Made by a program: the position numbers and the translations under genes. Source: a virus (lineage: Duplodnaviria; Caudoviricetes). From it: DNA of 24,186 nucleotides. Positions 562 through 24,186 of the stretch are shown piece after piece. The notes beneath the pieces were generated by a model. It was not told the origin of the DNA. It was given only the letters and a program-made list of their open reading frames with translations, and did no database searches. The stretch's first letter is position 1, and each line of letters opens with the position of its first letter. The stretch covers positions 1 to 24,186 of the IMG/VR virus record IMGVR_UViG_3300027774_000011; one strand, 5' to 3'.

Positions 562-2310
562 TTAAACCCAGTTGTGACCGCTGGTATGGTCTTCTAAGCC
601 TCTAGCCTCTCTACGCTGCTCTATATCCATACCCAACACCATATGATTTGCAGATGCTTGAGGGTCATCTAGGAACTCTTCGAGCATTGTATTCCATTCT
701 TCTGCTTTTCTCAGGGCTATTTGCTTCTCTGCACTGATAGAAAGGGCATCTGTGAAGTATTTTACCCCTTGTGCAAGGCAATCTATCCTATCATCGTGTT
801 TTACTGCCCGTTTTTCACGGCACATACGGCTCATTTGGTAGAAGAGCATGTAAAGAAGCCGCTGTTCTGGGGCTTCAGTTGGATTACTGTTGTAGTCCCA
901 GTCAATAACGCCACGGTCGACGATAAGACGATGCTGGTTAAGCACAGGTTCAAGAGAATCAATAATCCTGTCCTCTTTTCTAACATTCGCTCGTACTTCT
1001 TCAATAAATATCGCCTGTTTTGTGTTCTGTAGATGTTTTTTAAATAGTTCACCAACAATTCCGTCTCCAAAGTTAGTCTCTACTACAAGTGAACTTACAT
1101 CATACTTCTCACACCCCTTGAGTATGTCTAGGAGTGTAGTGTCGCTGTATCCGTCTCTGTAAGCCCGCATTTCATGTAGATAGATGAACCCGTTTCGTTG
1201 TGATAGATAAGCAGCGGTCGTCTCGTCAGAGCCTCTACCGGAGGGATCGACAGAGCAAATGGTTTCTGTGTATCCACTCCACTCCCCACTAAGTTGCATC
1301 GGAGAGTAAAAGTAATCTCCGGGGAGTCCGACGCTTGGTGCGTCTTTGATAACGTTTGCTGGGTCTGAGCACCATACGACATTTTCGGGTGCAGAGTTAG
1401 GGTTAACGCTAGTAACAACGAGATCAGCCATCTTAAGTGGGAACTTCGCTGCATCGGATAGTGATGTATCAAGTTGAAATTGTAATAGGTAGTTTGATCT
1501 GCCCATTGAAGCCTCTCGCTCCAACAGGTCTTCGTCTGAGAATCTGTCATCTGTAGGAGTCCATTCTTCGGCTCCCTGTTCGATGTCCTCCTGTATCTCA
1601 AAGGCTAGCAGTCCTTCGTACTTGGACAGCTGCTTCTTTCTTGGGTATCTTGCAGGCCAGACCAAGGGCTTGTAGTTACGCTCAGCCAACCTACGGTAAA
1701 TAGTAAAAGTAGTCTGAGGAGTCCCGAGATACATAATACGGCTATCACTTTTTGGTGTGAGGATAGATTCAGCTTCCGTACATAGTTGTAAAAGTTTTTC
1801 ACGCATGAACTCCGTTAAGCTGTTACCGGGTACTTCGATATCGTCGAGAATCATTAAATCTGCTCTGCTTCCGGTTAGCTGTCCAGTGATGCCCACCGAC
1901 TTTACGCTTGGTGCTTGGTGGGGTGAGCAGTTCACATCGAAGCTTATCCGCGACCATCTTGCATCGTCGGACTTCGGTTGTAAATGAGAAAGCCATGGTG
2001 TGTCTATAATAAGTTTTTGTAGAAAGATGGACATGTTGTCTGCACGTTCTTTTGACGCAGAGATAATCATAACCTTTCTTTCTGGGTCATTGAATAGTGT
2101 CCATAGTACGAACGCACCAGTAATCCAGCTCTTACCTACACCACGAAACGCCTGCACTTGCAAACGCTTCGGGCCGTTCTGTAGGTAGTCTGCTATCGCA
2201 TACTGTGCCCTTGTAGGACTAGGCAAGTCTAGCTGTGCCCACAATGCCTGTAGAAACAGCTTAAAGTCTTGCTGTAGTAAAACTAGAGAATTTTTTTCGG
2301 TGTTACTCAT
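562..2310 (-). CDS. terL: Terminase large subunit (T7 gp19-like DNA maturase B)
   Basis: Walker A AFRGVGKS, Walker B LMILDDIE, motif YLGTPQ, nuclease-domain SVDPSGRGSDE and HDDRIDCLA. Confidence 0.97.
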   Translation of the reverse strand: MSNTEKNSLVLLQQDFKLFLQALWAQLDLPSPTRAQYAIADYLQNGPKRLQVQAFRGVGKSWITGAFVLWTLFNDPERKVMIISASKERADNMSIFLQKLIIDTPWLSHLQPKSDDARWSRISFDVNCSPHQAPSVKSVGITGQLTGSRADLMILDDIEVPGNSLTEFMREKLLQLCTEAESILTPKSDSRIMYLGTPQTTFTIYRRLAERNYKPLVWPARYPRKKQLSKYEGLLAFEIQEDIEQGAEEWTPTDDRFSDEDLLEREASMGRSNYLLQFQLDTSLSDAAKFPLKMADLVVTSVNPNSAPENVVWCSDPANVIKDAPSVGLPGDYFYSPMQLSGEWSGYTETICSVDPSGRGSDETTAAYLSQRNGFIYLHEMRAYRDGYSDTTLLDILKGCEKYDVSSLVVETNFGDGIVGELFKKHLQNTKQAIFIEEVRANVRKEDRIIDSLEPVLNQHRLIVDRGVIDWDYNSNPTEAPEQRLLYMLFYQMSRMCREKRAVKHDDRIDCLAQGVKYFTDALSISAEKQIALRKAEEWNTMLEEFLDDPQASANHMVLGMDIEQRREARGLEDHTSGHNWV

Positions 2311-4132
2311 CTAATCTTCCTTTAAGTTGTCCTTGTATATATTTTCTTTGCTGAGTTTTGCTAGGAAATGGGCCTACATTCTGATCTAATCCTCTATTTG
2401 TTATTTCACTTATATACTTTGGTTTAGGTAAGAATGGGTATTTTTCATATAGCTTTATAAGATCATCCTGTAATGCCTTATCTATAATTAATCTTCTTTG
2501 CTTATTACTCTTACGACTTAAATTAGGAGCGTCATTTACAATAATCTCAATACGTTTTCTAATAATATAGTCACGGAACTCATCTAAGCTTGTAAATCTT
2601 GCACCAGTATCTGGATTTATTTGCTGAAGAACATTACTTTGTAATAAAGACCTAGCATTGTTATTTTGAGGATAAAGAACATCTAAATAATTTCCTATTT
2701 TACCTATTAATTTATTGTCACCAGCTCTTCTGATTACCACGTCACCAAGCTGTGTGCGATTAAATATAAAAGATCGTTTATCAATATCTTCTACGGATAC
2801 AATAAGCCTATTTTCTAGCTTAGGGCTTAGCGTACCAATACCCGGTGCAGCTTCTGTACCATACAAGATATTTTCAGTTACATCTTTTAAGGCTTTGTAG
2901 CGATTATTAAAGTTTATACGAACGTTTTTACTAGCATTTCTATCACCTTTATTAAGTCCGGGTCGTGTAATTCCGTTTTGATCTATATAAGTATCACTCC
3001 AATACCAGTCCATATCAAATGAGTTTTGAGATCTTCGACTTAACTCGCTTGCAAGATAATCTTCATCCATAGATAAAACAGGCATCTGTTGCCTTAGTCT
3101 TTCTAGTCTGTTCTTCTTACTAGCCTTAGCTATCATATGTTCAATATAACCGGTTTGTAAGTTTTCACCTTCCTGTAGTTCTTTAAAAAGTTTAAGTTTA
3201 TCACCTTCTTTTAGTTCATCAAGAACTTGAACTTTAAAATCAGCTAAACTTTTATACCCTGACTTTTTAGATAAATTATCAATGTATCTATCCAGTGCAG
3301 ATGCCATTTCAAACTGTGTAAAACCACGTTTAGGTTTAAGAGTAACTGGATCTACAAATAAACTAGGAGCAGTTCGTTTGTTTCTCATAACTTTCTCTAC
3401 AACTCGTTTGAAGAAACCACCGTCTCCACCGAAGTCAGAAGATGTTGGTGGTGGTATGTTAACCGAACCACCCTGTTTTACTATACTGTCATCGGATATA
3501 GCAGCATTTACTAAATCAGTATATAAATTTGACTTGCCTCTATTCATCTTTTCAGCTAAGCCTTGAAAAAACTGAGTTTTACTTATACCTTTACCAGCAA
3601 AATCAAACCCAGTACCAAGAACACCGCCAGTAGCAAAGGCTGATACCTGATCTCCAAAGCCTAACACTTTATCATCATCAACTATAGATCGAATGTTCTG
3701 CTCGACTCCAGCTGTAGTAGCACCTCTAAGTGCAGATCTAGCTACACCCTTACCTGTAACAGCTCCGGGTATAAGACTAGCAGCTGATGTACCTACAAGC
3801 TCGCCTAAGCTAAACTTGTCACCACGCATTTTTTGAGCAATAGCGTTAATTATAGCAGACCCACCCACGTTTGCAATACCATAAAGACCTTTAGTTAAGA
3901 AACCTTCAGGTACACCAAGAAGCCAGCTAGTACCAGCATCTAAAGCTAAGTTAGCTCCTATTTCAAAAGCGGTTCCTCCTAGCTGTTGATCTAAACCGGG
4001 AATGTCTAACTGCCTTCCTTGCTCTTGTTTTTTACGTAGTTCTTCGTTAGCTTTTGTTTTTTCTTGGTACTCTTCGTTTATACGTTTATTGTACTCATCT
4101 ATATCTTTTTGAGTTAGTTCATCTTCGTTCAT
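2303..4132 (-). CDS. Hypothetical 609-aa protein: Gly/Ala-rich helical N-terminus, AT-rich basic C-terminus with a possible divergent HNH-like motif
   Basis: Long ORF with an ATGA overlap to the upstream HNH gene and an 8-nt overlap with terL. Function not recognised. Confidence 0.8.
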   Translation of the reverse strand: MNEDELTQKDIDEYNKRINEEYQEKTKANEELRKKQEQGRQLDIPGLDQQLGGTAFEIGANLALDAGTSWLLGVPEGFLTKGLYGIANVGGSAIINAIAQKMRGDKFSLGELVGTSAASLIPGAVTGKGVARSALRGATTAGVEQNIRSIVDDDKVLGFGDQVSAFATGGVLGTGFDFAGKGISKTQFFQGLAEKMNRGKSNLYTDLVNAAISDDSIVKQGGSVNIPPPTSSDFGGDGGFFKRVVEKVMRNKRTAPSLFVDPVTLKPKRGFTQFEMASALDRYIDNLSKKSGYKSLADFKVQVLDELKEGDKLKLFKELQEGENLQTGYIEHMIAKASKKNRLERLRQQMPVLSMDEDYLASELSRRSQNSFDMDWYWSDTYIDQNGITRPGLNKGDRNASKNVRINFNNRYKALKDVTENILYGTEAAPGIGTLSPKLENRLIVSVEDIDKRSFIFNRTQLGDVVIRRAGDNKLIGKIGNYLDVLYPQNNNARSLLQSNVLQQINPDTGARFTSLDEFRDYIIRKRIEIIVNDAPNLSRKSNKQRRLIIDKALQDDLIKLYEKYPFLPKPKYISEITNRGLDQNVGPFPSKTQQRKYIQGQLKGRLDE

Positions 4133-4455
4133 TGTATGTGTGCCTGTATAGTTTGCTCTCGGTCGGTGACACCGAATCGACCTCTCATCCAGTTGAGCCA
4201 GTCAAGGCTACCTTTCTCCTGATTGCACCGGGTACACGAGGGTACAACATTCCTCGTAATGCTTTGACCACCCTTGCTCTTAGGGCGTACGTGGTCGATA
4301 GTAAGGTTGTGTAGTTCATAAAATCCTCCGCAATAAACACATTGACAATTAAAATGCTCTTTTATAGCTCTTCTCCATAGTCTCTTTGACTCTGAACTTG
4401 TCATGGTTATTAAGTTGTGTAAGTAGTAATCAGGTGTTGGTAGTAATGGGGTCAT
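4129..4455 (-). CDS. HNH endonuclease
   Basis: CVYCG...LTIDHVRPKSKGG...NVVPSCTRCNQEKG, a canonical zinc-binding HNH signature. ATGA overlaps at both ends. Confidence 0.93.
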   Translation of the reverse strand: MTPLLPTPDYYLHNLITMTSSESKRLWRRAIKEHFNCQCVYCGGFYELHNLTIDHVRPKSKGGQSITRNVVPSCTRCNQEKGSLDWLNWMRGRFGVTDREQTIQAHIQ

Positions 4456-22724: not shown

Positions 22725-22752
22725 AAGAAAAAAAGGGGAGCCGAAGCTCCCG
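22725..22752 (-). terminator. Intrinsic terminator after the major capsid gene (T-phi analogue)
   Basis: Minus strand GGGAGC-TTCG-GCTCCC followed by CTTTTTTTCTT: a C(UUCG)G tetraloop stem plus U-tract. Confidence 0.9.
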
Positions 22753-22763
22753 TATAAAGTGAA

Positions 22764-23915
22764 TTAACCAAATGCTGTTGGTTTTGTTGCTGTACCAGCG
22801 AATAGCTCGACGGCAGCAGCTGGGTTTAAGAAATCTGCACCCATAGCTAGACGACCTAAGATAACGTCTCCTTGGTATACCACTGAGATGTCTCCAGATG
22901 TTGTCTGAACTTGAGGGCCGATTGCCTCAACACATGCAGCAGCTTCCTTCTGGAAGATAAGTCCACAAGAGTTGTTGAACTTAGCCTGCTGACCGTAATC
23001 GTTTACGGTTACGTTGTGGTCATCACCCATAGCCTCTTCTACGAAGCTACCTGTGTTTCCGGGATCTGCTTTACCGGGGTTTGTTGCAGAACCTGTACCG
23101 TACTTAGTACCGAAGTTTCCGAAGAAAGGAATATTCATTGACTTGAAGATCTGGATTCCAGCGATCTCGATGATGCCTTGTCCTGACTGCAATGCGTCTC
23201 CTCTTTCGTTACGGTTGATTAAGCCGTTTGATTCTACGTTTTGTATAAGTGCGTAGTACTGTCTTGGGTTAAGTACAGCTACTCTACCGTCACCAGATAC
23301 GCCCTTCTCGTCTAACGCAGCAGCTGCATCATAGAACGCGTTGATTAATAATCCAGCGTCGTAAGCATCAGATGCGTTAGTTCCTGTTGTACCTACACGT
23401 ATTTGTGTTCCACCGGGCTCTACAAAGTTAGTCTTTGTAATTGGGTGTGCCTTACGTGCAGCTTTTGTGATAGCTCTGAAGATCTTTCTATCATACTGCT
23501 CTGCAAGAGCGTATCCGATCTTTCTAGAGATCTCACCTCTCAAGTCATAGTGTGAGAGTGTTTCATCTAGCTCATAAACAAAAGCTGAACTGATTAATAA
23601 ATCATCAACAGTTATTGTTTTTTCTGCTACTGGTGGTGCACCATCGTCGTTTCCTAAGATGCTTTTTCCGGGTGTATGATACTCGGCTTTTGTGCGTCCA
23701 GTATAGATGAACTGAAGACTCTTCCCGTTTGTAAGAGTTCTTCTCATAACAAGGTCACGTGCTATCGTGTTCCTTTGGAAGCCTTTGAACATCTCTCCTG
23801 AAAACAGTTTCAGGTAGAGGGCTCTGGCGTCGGTTCCCGGAGTACCGTTGGCGGTTCCGGAGTCAATACCACCTCTAAATAGAGAGGCGTTATTGCCTGC
23901 TGATTGTTGTGCCAT
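22764..23915 (-). CDS. Major capsid protein (T7 gp10-like)
   Basis: ALYLKLFSGE, RTL.NGKS.QF..TGR, EK.IT.DD.L, YDLR.E.S...G.ALA...D, and G..AMG...L.P.AA. Confidence 0.97.
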   Translation of the reverse strand: MAQQSAGNNASLFRGGIDSGTANGTPGTDARALYLKLFSGEMFKGFQRNTIARDLVMRRTLTNGKSLQFIYTGRTKAEYHTPGKSILGNDDGAPPVAEKTITVDDLLISSAFVYELDETLSHYDLRGEISRKIGYALAEQYDRKIFRAITKAARKAHPITKTNFVEPGGTQIRVGTTGTNASDAYDAGLLINAFYDAAAALDEKGVSGDGRVAVLNPRQYYALIQNVESNGLINRNERGDALQSGQGIIEIAGIQIFKSMNIPFFGNFGTKYGTGSATNPGKADPGNTGSFVEEAMGDDHNVTVNDYGQQAKFNNSCGLIFQKEAAACVEAIGPQVQTTSGDISVVYQGDVILGRLAMGADFLNPAAAVELFAGTATKPTAFG

Positions 23916-23944
23916 TTCTAAGAATGAATATTAGTTTACTTTTC

Positions 23945-24030
23945 TCAGATCTGAAATTTTTGGCCAGTTTTTTGTGGTCTATCCCACCGTCTAGACGGCT
24001 TAAGGTATCCTCCGTAGAGGGCAAAAGCCA
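23945..24030 (-). promoter_or_regulatory. Structured 5' leader of the capsid gene
   Basis: GGCTT...CCTC-TACG-GAGG...AAGCC stem with UNCG loop; palindromes CCGTCTAGACGG (23987-23998) and TCAGATCTGA (23945-23954); GTGG-GATAGA-CCAC hairpin. Confidence 0.5.
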
Positions 24031-24031
24031 A

Positions 24032-24082
24032 TAGAGTAGGGAGGAGTTGCACCTCCCAAGTCAACTATTTCTTGACTACTCT
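24032..24082 (-). other. tRNA-like mini-structure (7-bp acceptor-like stem plus T-arm-like hairpin)
   Basis: AGAGTAG(24082-24076)...GGAGG-TGCAACT-CCTCC-CTACTCT(24039-24033)-A. Confidence 0.5.
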
Positions 24083-24121
24083 TGTGTACTCAATGCCACG
24101 ATATACGTAGGTTACAGTCAT
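24065..24121 (-). CDS. 18-aa YRG-motif peptide (DUF4278-like 'downstream peptide')
   Basis: MTVTYVYRGIEYTRVVKK*; GGAG RBS at 24131-24128; directly follows the riboswitch-like RNA. Confidence 0.75.
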   Translation of the reverse strand: MTVTYVYRGIEYTRVVKK

Positions 24122-24137
24122 TGTAAACTCCATATAC

Positions 24138-24186
24138 CCAAGCCCCGTTCCATGCTTGGATCTCATGCGTCCCGAAGGATGAACGG
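24138..24186 (-). ncRNA. Glutamine-II riboswitch (Downstream-peptide motif)-like RNA; 5' end at the window edge
   Basis: Minus strand CCGTTCA-TCC-TTCG-GGA-CGCATGAGAT-CCAAGC-ATGGAACGGG-GCTTGG. The 5' CCGTTC can pair with loop GAACGG to form a pseudoknot, and a YRG peptide gene follows. Confidence 0.8.

Follow-up and report, generated by a model that had tools for sequence, protein, structure and literature searches.

A glutamine-II riboswitch with a short YRG peptide, and a separate conserved RNA leader headed by a tRNA-like element, upstream of the capsid gene of a T7-like cyanopodovirus

A glutamine riboswitch that lies a short distance upstream of a phage major capsid gene raises the question of whether the switch governs capsid production or only the short peptide encoded between the two. 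The sequence analyzed (referred to below as the window) is a contig of 24,186 bases, which carries, on the minus strand, the late region of a T7-like phage: genes for the terminase, tail fibres, internal virion proteins, tail tubes and the major capsid protein (383 aa). The phage is a P-SSP7-like cyanopodovirus, and the last 487 bases of the window match the Prochlorococcus/Synechococcus podoviruses P-GSP1, P-SSP7 and P-SSP3 at approximately 78%. The contig ends one base short of the first conserved C of the aptamer, and the upstream promoter context lies outside the window; in the aptamer-anchored set of relatives, the end of psbA was found less than 1 kb upstream in 28 of 44 loci.

For comparison, we used 120 loci collected via a leader pattern, 80 via capsid homology and 120 via an aptamer pattern, together with named phages. 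The aptamer-pattern set overlaps the leader-pattern set, and the counts given below rest on related sequences and overlapping sets of loci. The features at the two ends of the locus are as follows:

24137..24185, minus strand: Glutamine-II (Downstream-peptide, DP) riboswitch aptamer (RF01704, 41.5 bits, gathering threshold 33, E 3.8e-07)
24181-24186 and 24145-24150, minus strand: pseudoknot strands of the aptamer, from sequence reading
24170-24179, minus strand: UUCG hairpin of the aptamer, from sequence reading
24154-24159/24138-24143, minus strand: stem P2 of the aptamer, from sequence reading
24128..24131, minus strand: Shine-Dalgarno (SD)-like GGAG directly 3′ of the aptamer, from sequence reading
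24065..24121, minus strand: 18-codon YRG ORF with its stop, MTVTYVYRGIEYTRVVKK at 24121-24068 and TAG at 24067-24065
22764..23915, minus strand: T7-like major capsid protein gene (PF21703, E 1.9e-72; phrog_267)
22736..22751, minus strand: intrinsic terminator-like hairpin behind the capsid gene, kept in 97 of 101 loci

RF01704 was the sole match in the window to reach an Rfam gathering threshold. Read against PMC6698751, the aptamer contains all of the bases C1, G2, G18, C19, A33, G35 and A37-G42 (crystal numbering), and its P1-pseudoknot-P2 arrangement includes the contacts C1, G18, C39 and G40, the pair C19:G41 and A33:G42 given there. The preliminary description of this DNA had recognized the pseudoknot, the UUCG hairpin, a CCAAGC/GCTTGG stem, a ribosome-binding site and the ORF, and had assigned the RNA to the Downstream-peptide/glutamine-II class; every one of these features is in place on the minus strand, and the Rfam model search bears out the assignment. 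The riboswitch class has already been described (PMC2864571) and glutamine riboswitches are known in T4-like cyanophages and in Melnitz (PMC9964418, PMC9004378), and the riboswitch and peptide of the window are a phage member of this known kind.

The phage locus resembles the Glutamine-II/DP type of Prochlorococcus MED4 Yfr6 in having an aptamer above the Rfam cut-off, a complete set of ligand-contact bases, and an SD sequence and short YRG ORF right behind (of 79 unique copies of the aptamer, 56 have an SD-like 4-mer after them). It differs from that type in being carried by a phage within a late transcript, in the rarity of an NtcA-like box (3 of 81 copies within 120 nt upstream of the aptamer), in a peptide shortened to 13–42 aa, and in the tRNA mimic and capsid leader that come after the peptide. 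Translation of a fusion to the own ORF of the MED4 DP aptamer rose after ammonium (PMC6212724), so a glutamine-ON translational switch is the expected action on the phage peptide; by this analogy, the phage aptamer likely switches peptide translation on at high glutamine. Binding of glutamine and expression that depends on it are known from the host copies of MED4 and RS01. The SD sequence of the peptide was hidden in a single-sequence fold, which leaves the switch undefined because the pseudoknot lies outside such folding.

The aptamer is tightly linked to the peptide. Upstream of capsid genes, it is followed by a YRG ORF in 102 of 103 unique copies (97 with ATG and five with GTG starts), and in the aptamer-anchored set in 107 of 109, with two duplicates dropped and nine further pattern matches set aside as non-riboswitches. 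In the window, the ORF starts 13 nt past the aptamer, and an alternative in-frame ATG at 24133 would give a peptide of 22 aa. The GTG-started YRG peptides (L047, L097, L106, L122 and L199) are overlooked by an ATG-only search. In the one exception to the linkage, L164, the aptamer at 878-940 runs straight into the 3′ half of the leader, and the peptide, the tRNA mimic and the 5′ strand of the leader stem P1 are missing; either a deletion that arose in nature or a chimeric assembly joined at a short word common to both parts may account for this.

The distance between aptamer and capsid gene is, in contrast, variable. Where 1500 nt or more of upstream sequence was available (62 unique loci), the two were adjacent in 26 (24 plus two with GTG), separated by 201–450 nt in 14 and by more than 450 nt in 14, and no aptamer was seen in eight; the switch was further from the capsid gene (mostly behind extra genes) or none was seen in 36 of these relatives. 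The 27 capsid-anchored loci alone comprised 11 adjacent, seven at 201–450 nt, five further away and four with none seen, while the aptamer-anchored set (n = 61) comprised 30 adjacent, 26 further away and five without a leader match. Counts of loci with no riboswitch seen may include copies diverged below detection, as in S-CBP3 (L209:1105-1240), where an aptamer-like sequence below Rfam detection is accompanied by a YRG ORF and a T-loop mimic. Four genes separate aptamer and capsid gene in P-SSP10, and two genes plus a tRNA in NATL1A-7. On a quick tree of 102 capsid proteins, adjacency switches 17 times. It had been proposed that the switch is wired directly to the capsid gene and tunes capsid output, but synteny across cyanopodoviruses, with its variable distances and repeated changes, the near-complete linkage to the peptide and the presence of a separate leader before the capsid gene all speak otherwise, and direct capsid control by the aptamer is not supported by these sequences.

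Several further observations concern the cargo of this region. Between peptide and leader, a 118–123-aa protein with a signal-peptide-like start (annotated gp222) and peptides of 46–61 aa with a Cys-x2-Cys motif recur in L004, L006, L044, L063 and others. IMG/VR contigs, including the window at 24186 and many of L127-L206, very often stop no more than a few hundred bases upstream of the capsid gene, which is consistent with near-invariant RNA blocks flanked by swappable cargo. Elsewhere in the window, just upstream of the large terminase gene, a 609-aa ORF at 2303-4132 that matched no PHROG adjoins a free-standing HNH endonuclease at 4129-4455.

The capsid ATG at 23915 lies 149 nt past the peptide stop, close to the 150 nt estimated in the preliminary description. 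That description had noted no clear U-tract terminator in the spacer, and no such terminator was found between peptide and capsid gene in the window or in any of 36 adjacent-type loci. The spacer is far from empty: it contains a tRNA-like element and a conserved, structured leader. The tRNA-like element comprises:

24032..24082, minus strand: tRNA-like three-way junction (minimum-energy fold, z −3.38, none of 200 shuffles as good)
24077-24082/24033-24038, minus strand: acceptor-like stem, 6 bp
24060-24076, minus strand: side hairpin of the fold, containing the peptide stop codon
24039-24057, minus strand: T-arm of the fold, 6 bp with a 7-nt T-loop
24032, minus strand: discriminator-like A, following the acceptor-like stem

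The same three-way junction fold was obtained for P-SSP7 and S-SBP1. The element in the window has a 12-bp acceptor/T stack, a 7-nt T-loop, a discriminator-like base and a fixed register, and lacks D and anticodon arms; ARAGORN called no tRNA gene there and RF00005 gave no match. Among 111 unique 5′ neighbours of the leader, 53 belong to this T-loop class, 56 to a second hairpin class and two to neither. The T-loop class lies 15–16 nt from P1 in all 53 loci, the register in which real tRNAs are also found, and its acceptor-like stem has at least 5 bp in 43 of the 53 compared with 19.5 in shuffles. The slot of the mimic is occupied by a real tRNA called by ARAGORN in 5 of 167 loci, namely tRNA-Gly(TCC) or tRNA-Leu without CCA (L006:3735-3805, and L009, L065, L170 and L173). 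In the second hairpin class (L004:2465-2500 and 55 other loci), the 15-nt loop is conserved and the distance to P1 is always 13–14 nt; this class gave no Rfam match and is possibly a variant T-loop module. Tracts of tRNA length that ARAGORN left uncalled also occur in the slot (L015, L063, L083 and L160).

tRNAs and tRNA-like elements are known to punctuate long transcripts via RNase P and RNase Z, as in mascRNA and the tRNA punctuation of mitochondria. The phage element shares with these the 12-bp acceptor/T coaxial stack, the 7-nt T-loop, the fixed register and the ability to be swapped with real tRNA genes; it differs in belonging to a bacteriophage mRNA, in the missing D and anticodon arms and in overlapping a coding stop, and its cleavage is a prediction. 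We infer that a fixed 12-bp ruler placed 2–3 nt before a stable stem is what a tRNA 3′-end nuclease would read, with recognition by RNase Z or RNase P made uncertain by the missing arms. Contigs from RNA libraries, which are silent on ends, strand and level, covered the region in 4 of the 16 runs listed, and one such contig of 143 nt spans the predicted cut. A peak of depth over the leader in one RNA run was discarded as a signal, being a pile-up of many phages.

Immediately downstream of the mimic, the leader itself contains the following elements:

23997..24029, minus strand: leader stem P1, interrupted by a 1x4 internal loop (C opposite AYAM), and P2, capped by a tetraloop (covariation, 107 of 109 leaders parsed)
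23987..23998, minus strand: near-invariant palindrome with a 0- or 2-nt centre, candidate RNA self-dimer site (linker types 94, 10 and 3 of 107, all self-complementary)
23974..23987, minus strand: hairpin P3 with a purine-rich loop (99.5% of cells paired; three of four pairs changed on both sides, in few sequences)
23961-23966, minus strand: 6-nt palindrome, from sequence reading
23945..23954, minus strand: second perfect palindrome, whose sequence varies between phages while the symmetry is kept (locus counts)

The core of this leader was present in all 62 capsid-anchored loci with at least 150 nt of upstream sequence, ending 63–85 nt before the ATG. Of 109 unique leaders, 107 parse into P1, the 1x4 loop, a tetraloop hairpin, a self-complementary linker of 6–8 nt and P3 (L164 and L198 did not). 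Among the 107, the 1x4 loop places C opposite AUAC in 86, ACAC in 18 and another sequence in three; the P2 tetraloop is UACG in 86 leaders. Two variable pairs of P1 are kept in 98 and 103 of the 107, compared with 52 and 62 after shuffling, and the middle pairs of this stem are often U-U. The excess of G-U over A-C (23 vs 2) in P1 fixes the strand as that of the mRNA. In a plain alignment of 96 leaders (13 near-duplicates or aberrant rows being left out), 96.8% of cells pair and none of 500 shuffles reached the covariation score, under controls that ignore kinship. RNAalifold recovered just eight pairs from a sequence-only alignment because the stem lengths vary, and the counts above therefore come from a parse that takes structure into account.

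A descriptor of the 1x4-loop stem, devised after the cyanophages, HTVC011P and CRP-171 had been seen, matched in the 200 nt next to the capsid start in 143 of 149 unique loci. Of 23 named phages, 19 had such a match, the background elsewhere being 0.028 per 200 nt; the Ralstonia phage DU_RP_I, with its split capsid gene, was excluded for that reason. The window and HTVC011P fail the strict form by one outer U-U pair. Eight phages were fetched afterwards, and five of them carry the descriptor (Ralstonia P-PSG-11, Rhizobium TRX32-1, HTVC019P, Caulobacter S2B and CRP-804); it is missing from Lo5R7ANS and from two T7-proper phages, which have a phi10-type promoter. By this sequence pattern, the 1x4-loop stem is located before the capsid genes of cyano-, pelagi-, roseo-, Rhizobium, Ralstonia and Caulobacter phages and not of T7 proper.

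Rfam (4227 models) gave no match to the leader in window positions 23700-24186 at E up to 10 (the best other match, 18.4 bits, lay on the opposite strand), or in 13 distant loci at E up to 1. HDV-like theta ribozymes, which lie 3′ of phage tRNAs, form a nested double pseudoknot with the 5′ strand of P2 and P3/L3 inside P1. In the leader, by inspection, the interior of P1 is a variable tetraloop hairpin with no downstream partner, and no Rfam ribozyme model matched; nor did the features of self-cleaving ribozymes (HDV-like, twister, pistol, hatchet) fit by inspection. A T7-type RNase III site was ruled out by inference, the stem past the internal loop being only 3–4 bp. The 80 loci listed from bacterial genomes by a loose pattern were non-cyanobacterial chance matches.

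Two observations on individual phages belong here. SS120-1 and S-CBP42 (L211 and L212) have, in the 200 nt before the capsid start, a common longer leader, in which an additional stem with a similar bulge at its end and a 10-nt palindrome precede the 1x4-loop stem. In DU_RP_I (L223:1-1380), the annotation splits the capsid gene into two parts that flank an endonuclease VII gene, possibly an intron or a mobile insertion.

The palindromes are a further conserved property of the leader. The one at 23987..23998 is too tight to fold as a hairpin; its computed homodimer (−26.6 kcal/mol) is stabler than the monomer (−4.8 kcal/mol), as is true of any palindrome. Among cyanophage loci, a perfect palindrome of at least 10 nt occurs between P3 and the ATG in 131 of 157 compared with 18.1 expected, with 12 different central 4-mers, and the first flanking mismatch beyond the palindrome is U-G in 110 of 154, against four for C-A/A-C, its opposite-strand equivalent. 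Symmetry kept despite sequence change, the wobble extension and, in the first palindrome, the 0- or 2-nt centre are better explained by self-pairing between RNAs than by a DNA site or an ordinary hairpin, and the palindromes look selected for it. Dimerization of palindromic RNA has precedents, including the phi29 pRNA (PMC7357161). As in the retroviral DIS, oskar and the phi29 pRNA, self-complementary segments are kept while their sequence changes; here, in contrast, they occupy the 5′ UTR of a dsDNA-phage capsid mRNA, with two or three sites per leader, and the dimer is predicted only.

The capsid start has no SD sequence (an SD-like 4-mer precedes 2 of 130 unique starts) and lies in a region of 81% A+U. 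As in the T7 gene 10 leader (phi10 promoter, 5′ stem-loop and SD; IME390, ICP3), a structured 5′ leader and a strong terminator bracket the capsid gene. The two arrangements differ in that the T7-type promoter and SD are absent here, their place being taken by the 1x4-loop stem, the palindromes and the tRNA-like 5′ neighbour, and in that the T7-proper phages lack the 1x4-loop descriptor.

The explanation that we prefer, and hold with about even confidence, is that the aptamer switches the YRG peptide, whereas the capsid gene has its own conserved leader and the tRNA mimic, cut by RNase Z, frees a capsid mRNA that is independent of glutamine. A long late transcript would run through the psbA island, the switch, the peptide and the capsid gene. 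Genes for RNase Z, RNase P, RNase E and RNase J occur in cyanobacteria (PMC10989914) and the related Syn5 polymerase transcribes more than 37 kb from one promoter (PMC3950665), which makes processing a plausible route to a separate capsid message. Cleavage by the host RNase Z would fall behind the discriminator-like base (24032) and leave 2 nt ahead of P1, which would protect the 5′-monophosphate end against RNase J and RNase E. A conserved protein (scaffold, capsid or host ribosomal protein) would likely bind the 1x4 loop and set capsid translation from the SD-less, AU-rich start, and the palindromes would likely pair capsid mRNA molecules with one another. Glutamine would set translation of the peptide only, the freed capsid mRNA being likely glutamine-independent. 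The second hairpin class, with no standard T-loop, counts against this explanation, as do the missing D and anticodon arms of the mimic, the frequent U-U in mid-P1, the outer U-U pair on which the window fails the strict descriptor, the eight pairs from RNAalifold and the RNA contig that spans the predicted cut. The explanation is also weakened by two findings that fit a coupling of the capsid message to glutamine: the association of mimic type with adjacency, and the stop codon within the mimic.

These two findings suggest an alternative in which, in adjacent-type phages, ribosomes translating the peptide at high glutamine stop inside the mimic, unwind the acceptor stem and so alter the cutting of the capsid mRNA, in either direction. 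The three-way mimic was found in 42 of 47 adjacent but only 9 of 44 non-adjacent loci, an association that persists beyond kinship on the capsid tree (7.2 vs 0.0 of 10 independent pairs; median p 0.016, range 0.004-0.22); in 51 of 52 adjacent T-class loci, the mimic contains the end of the peptide stop codon, and adjacency is the commonest single arrangement (26/62 and 30/61). However, the last codons of the peptide form the acceptor strand, so recombination would move mimic and peptide together even without function, and in non-adjacent loci unrelated ORFs were also seen, without a count, to end within the element or shortly ahead of it. Peptide and mimic lie apart in more than half of the relatives, and the predicted openness of the capsid start is unchanged without the upstream part (0.49 with and 0.47 without it, 34 loci; pseudoknots lie outside the model). 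We regard such gating as unlikely, though worth keeping in view.

A second alternative dispenses with the cut site: the invariant block would be, or include, a phage or host promoter of the capsid gene, and the tRNA-like fold would merely protect the 3′ end of the psbA-peptide message. A local promoter does precede the capsid gene in T7-proper phages and in LUZ100 (PMC10134795), the leader includes a nearly invariant part, and a single copy is compatible with a promoter, given that Syn5 has just two (PMC3950665). The single stem-forming copy, before the capsid gene, in each of five whole genomes read by eye nevertheless also counts on the other side, as do the variable positions, which covary as RNA stems with strand-specific G-U pairs, and the palindrome centre of 0 or 2 nt, which would be hard for a DNA-reading protein. 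A sigma-70-like site matching at 9 of 12 positions is present at 24127-24098, but it is one of four found where 2.1 were expected, and it overlaps the Tyr-Arg codons of the peptide. Taken together, we consider a promoter in this block rather doubtful.

What the peptide does is a separate matter. The motif Y-R-G-x-x-Y was present in all 84 unique peptides, with synonymous codon variation (the peptide filter demanded YRG and left the second Y free), and the phage peptides shrink to 13 aa around it. DUF4278 (PF14105) was matched by 32 of 41 relatives of at least 30 aa at 14–24.5 bits, none reaching the gathering threshold of 25.3, and the window peptide gave no match; the sequences suggest a peptide that works like a DUF4278 fragment while falling short of formal membership. 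The preliminary description had linked the YRG motif to the glutamine synthetase (GS) inactivating factors IF7 and IF17. The DUF4278-like identity stands, but the link to GS inactivation is weaker than claimed, as DUF4278 is the N-terminal part of IF17, is absent from IF7 and is dispensable for inactivation, GS being bound in both factors by a C-terminal domain with three arginines (PMC6316151). That domain is absent from the phage peptides, which end about 15 residues or less from YRG.

A minimal GS inactivating factor is nevertheless suggested by the weak DUF4278 matches, by the name IF17-like given to picocyanobacterial DUF4278 proteins (PMC6212724) and by a glutamine-ON logic like that of gifB. 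Those host proteins also lack the GS-binding C-terminal sequences (PMC6212724), which, with the dispensability of DUF4278 in IF17, makes a direct GS inhibitor a minor rival; peptides as short as 13 aa and the lack of an obvious gain from halting nitrogen assimilation during virion synthesis add to the case against it, and we judge it improbable. The peptide would more likely copy the glutamine-induced DUF4278 peptides of the host, as a further item of cargo in the psbA/hli island.

Weakest is the proposal that the aptamer itself governs initiation of capsid transcription or translation, which we consider very improbable: adjacency in P-SSP7, P-GSP1, P-SSP3, S-SBP1, S-TIP37 and SS120-1, the unterminated spacer and the aptamer-leader fusion of L164 favour it, but attenuation would need a terminator that is absent, the aptamer already has an SD and ORF of its own, 149 nt of separately folded and separately conserved RNA intervene, the capsid-start openness, predicted without pseudoknots, does not depend on the upstream part, and L164 is possibly an assembly chimera.

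In the open literature (subscription papers being outside its scope), we found no account of this riboswitch in T7-like cyanophages or of the capsid leader, and the available parts of PMC7885011, PMC12695635 and PMC10134795 do not mention such a leader. Part of the leader may already be among the unannotated aquatic candidate RNAs of PMC10690425, in which DNAVirus_231, 3706, 3823, 3864 and 5397 lie upstream of PHA00201 capsid genes, at most 25 nt away. Compared by description and not by sequence, these share with the leader their origin in aquatic phages and their position within 25 nt of T7-like capsid starts; they differ in that the available part of that source gives no function, tRNA mimic or link to a riboswitch. 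What is new here lies in the spacer, which had been overlooked: by sequence comparison, it carries a widely conserved and apparently undescribed leader that combines a tRNA mimic, a 1x4-loop stem and palindromes predicted to self-pair.

Podoviruses of this kind are among the most abundant viruses of the surface ocean, and the searchable literature does not explain how they make capsid protein in excess from a single long transcript while lacking late promoters of the T7 type. Very tentatively, and with low confidence in the whole, T7-like marine and soil phages without phi10 may make their capsid message by an RNase Z-cut tRNA mimic, a 1x4 operator read by a virion protein and messages joined through palindromes into dimers or chains, with a glutamine switch that in about two fifths of cyanopodoviruses couples capsid supply to the nitrogen state of the host by way of ribosomes that stop within the mimic. 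A leader common to cyanophages and to SAR11, Roseobacter, Rhizobium, Ralstonia and Caulobacter phages offers exact predicted cut sites and pairings, and the unannotated glutamine switch and peptide carried by most clade-B-type cyanopodoviruses make viral nitrogen sensing directly testable.
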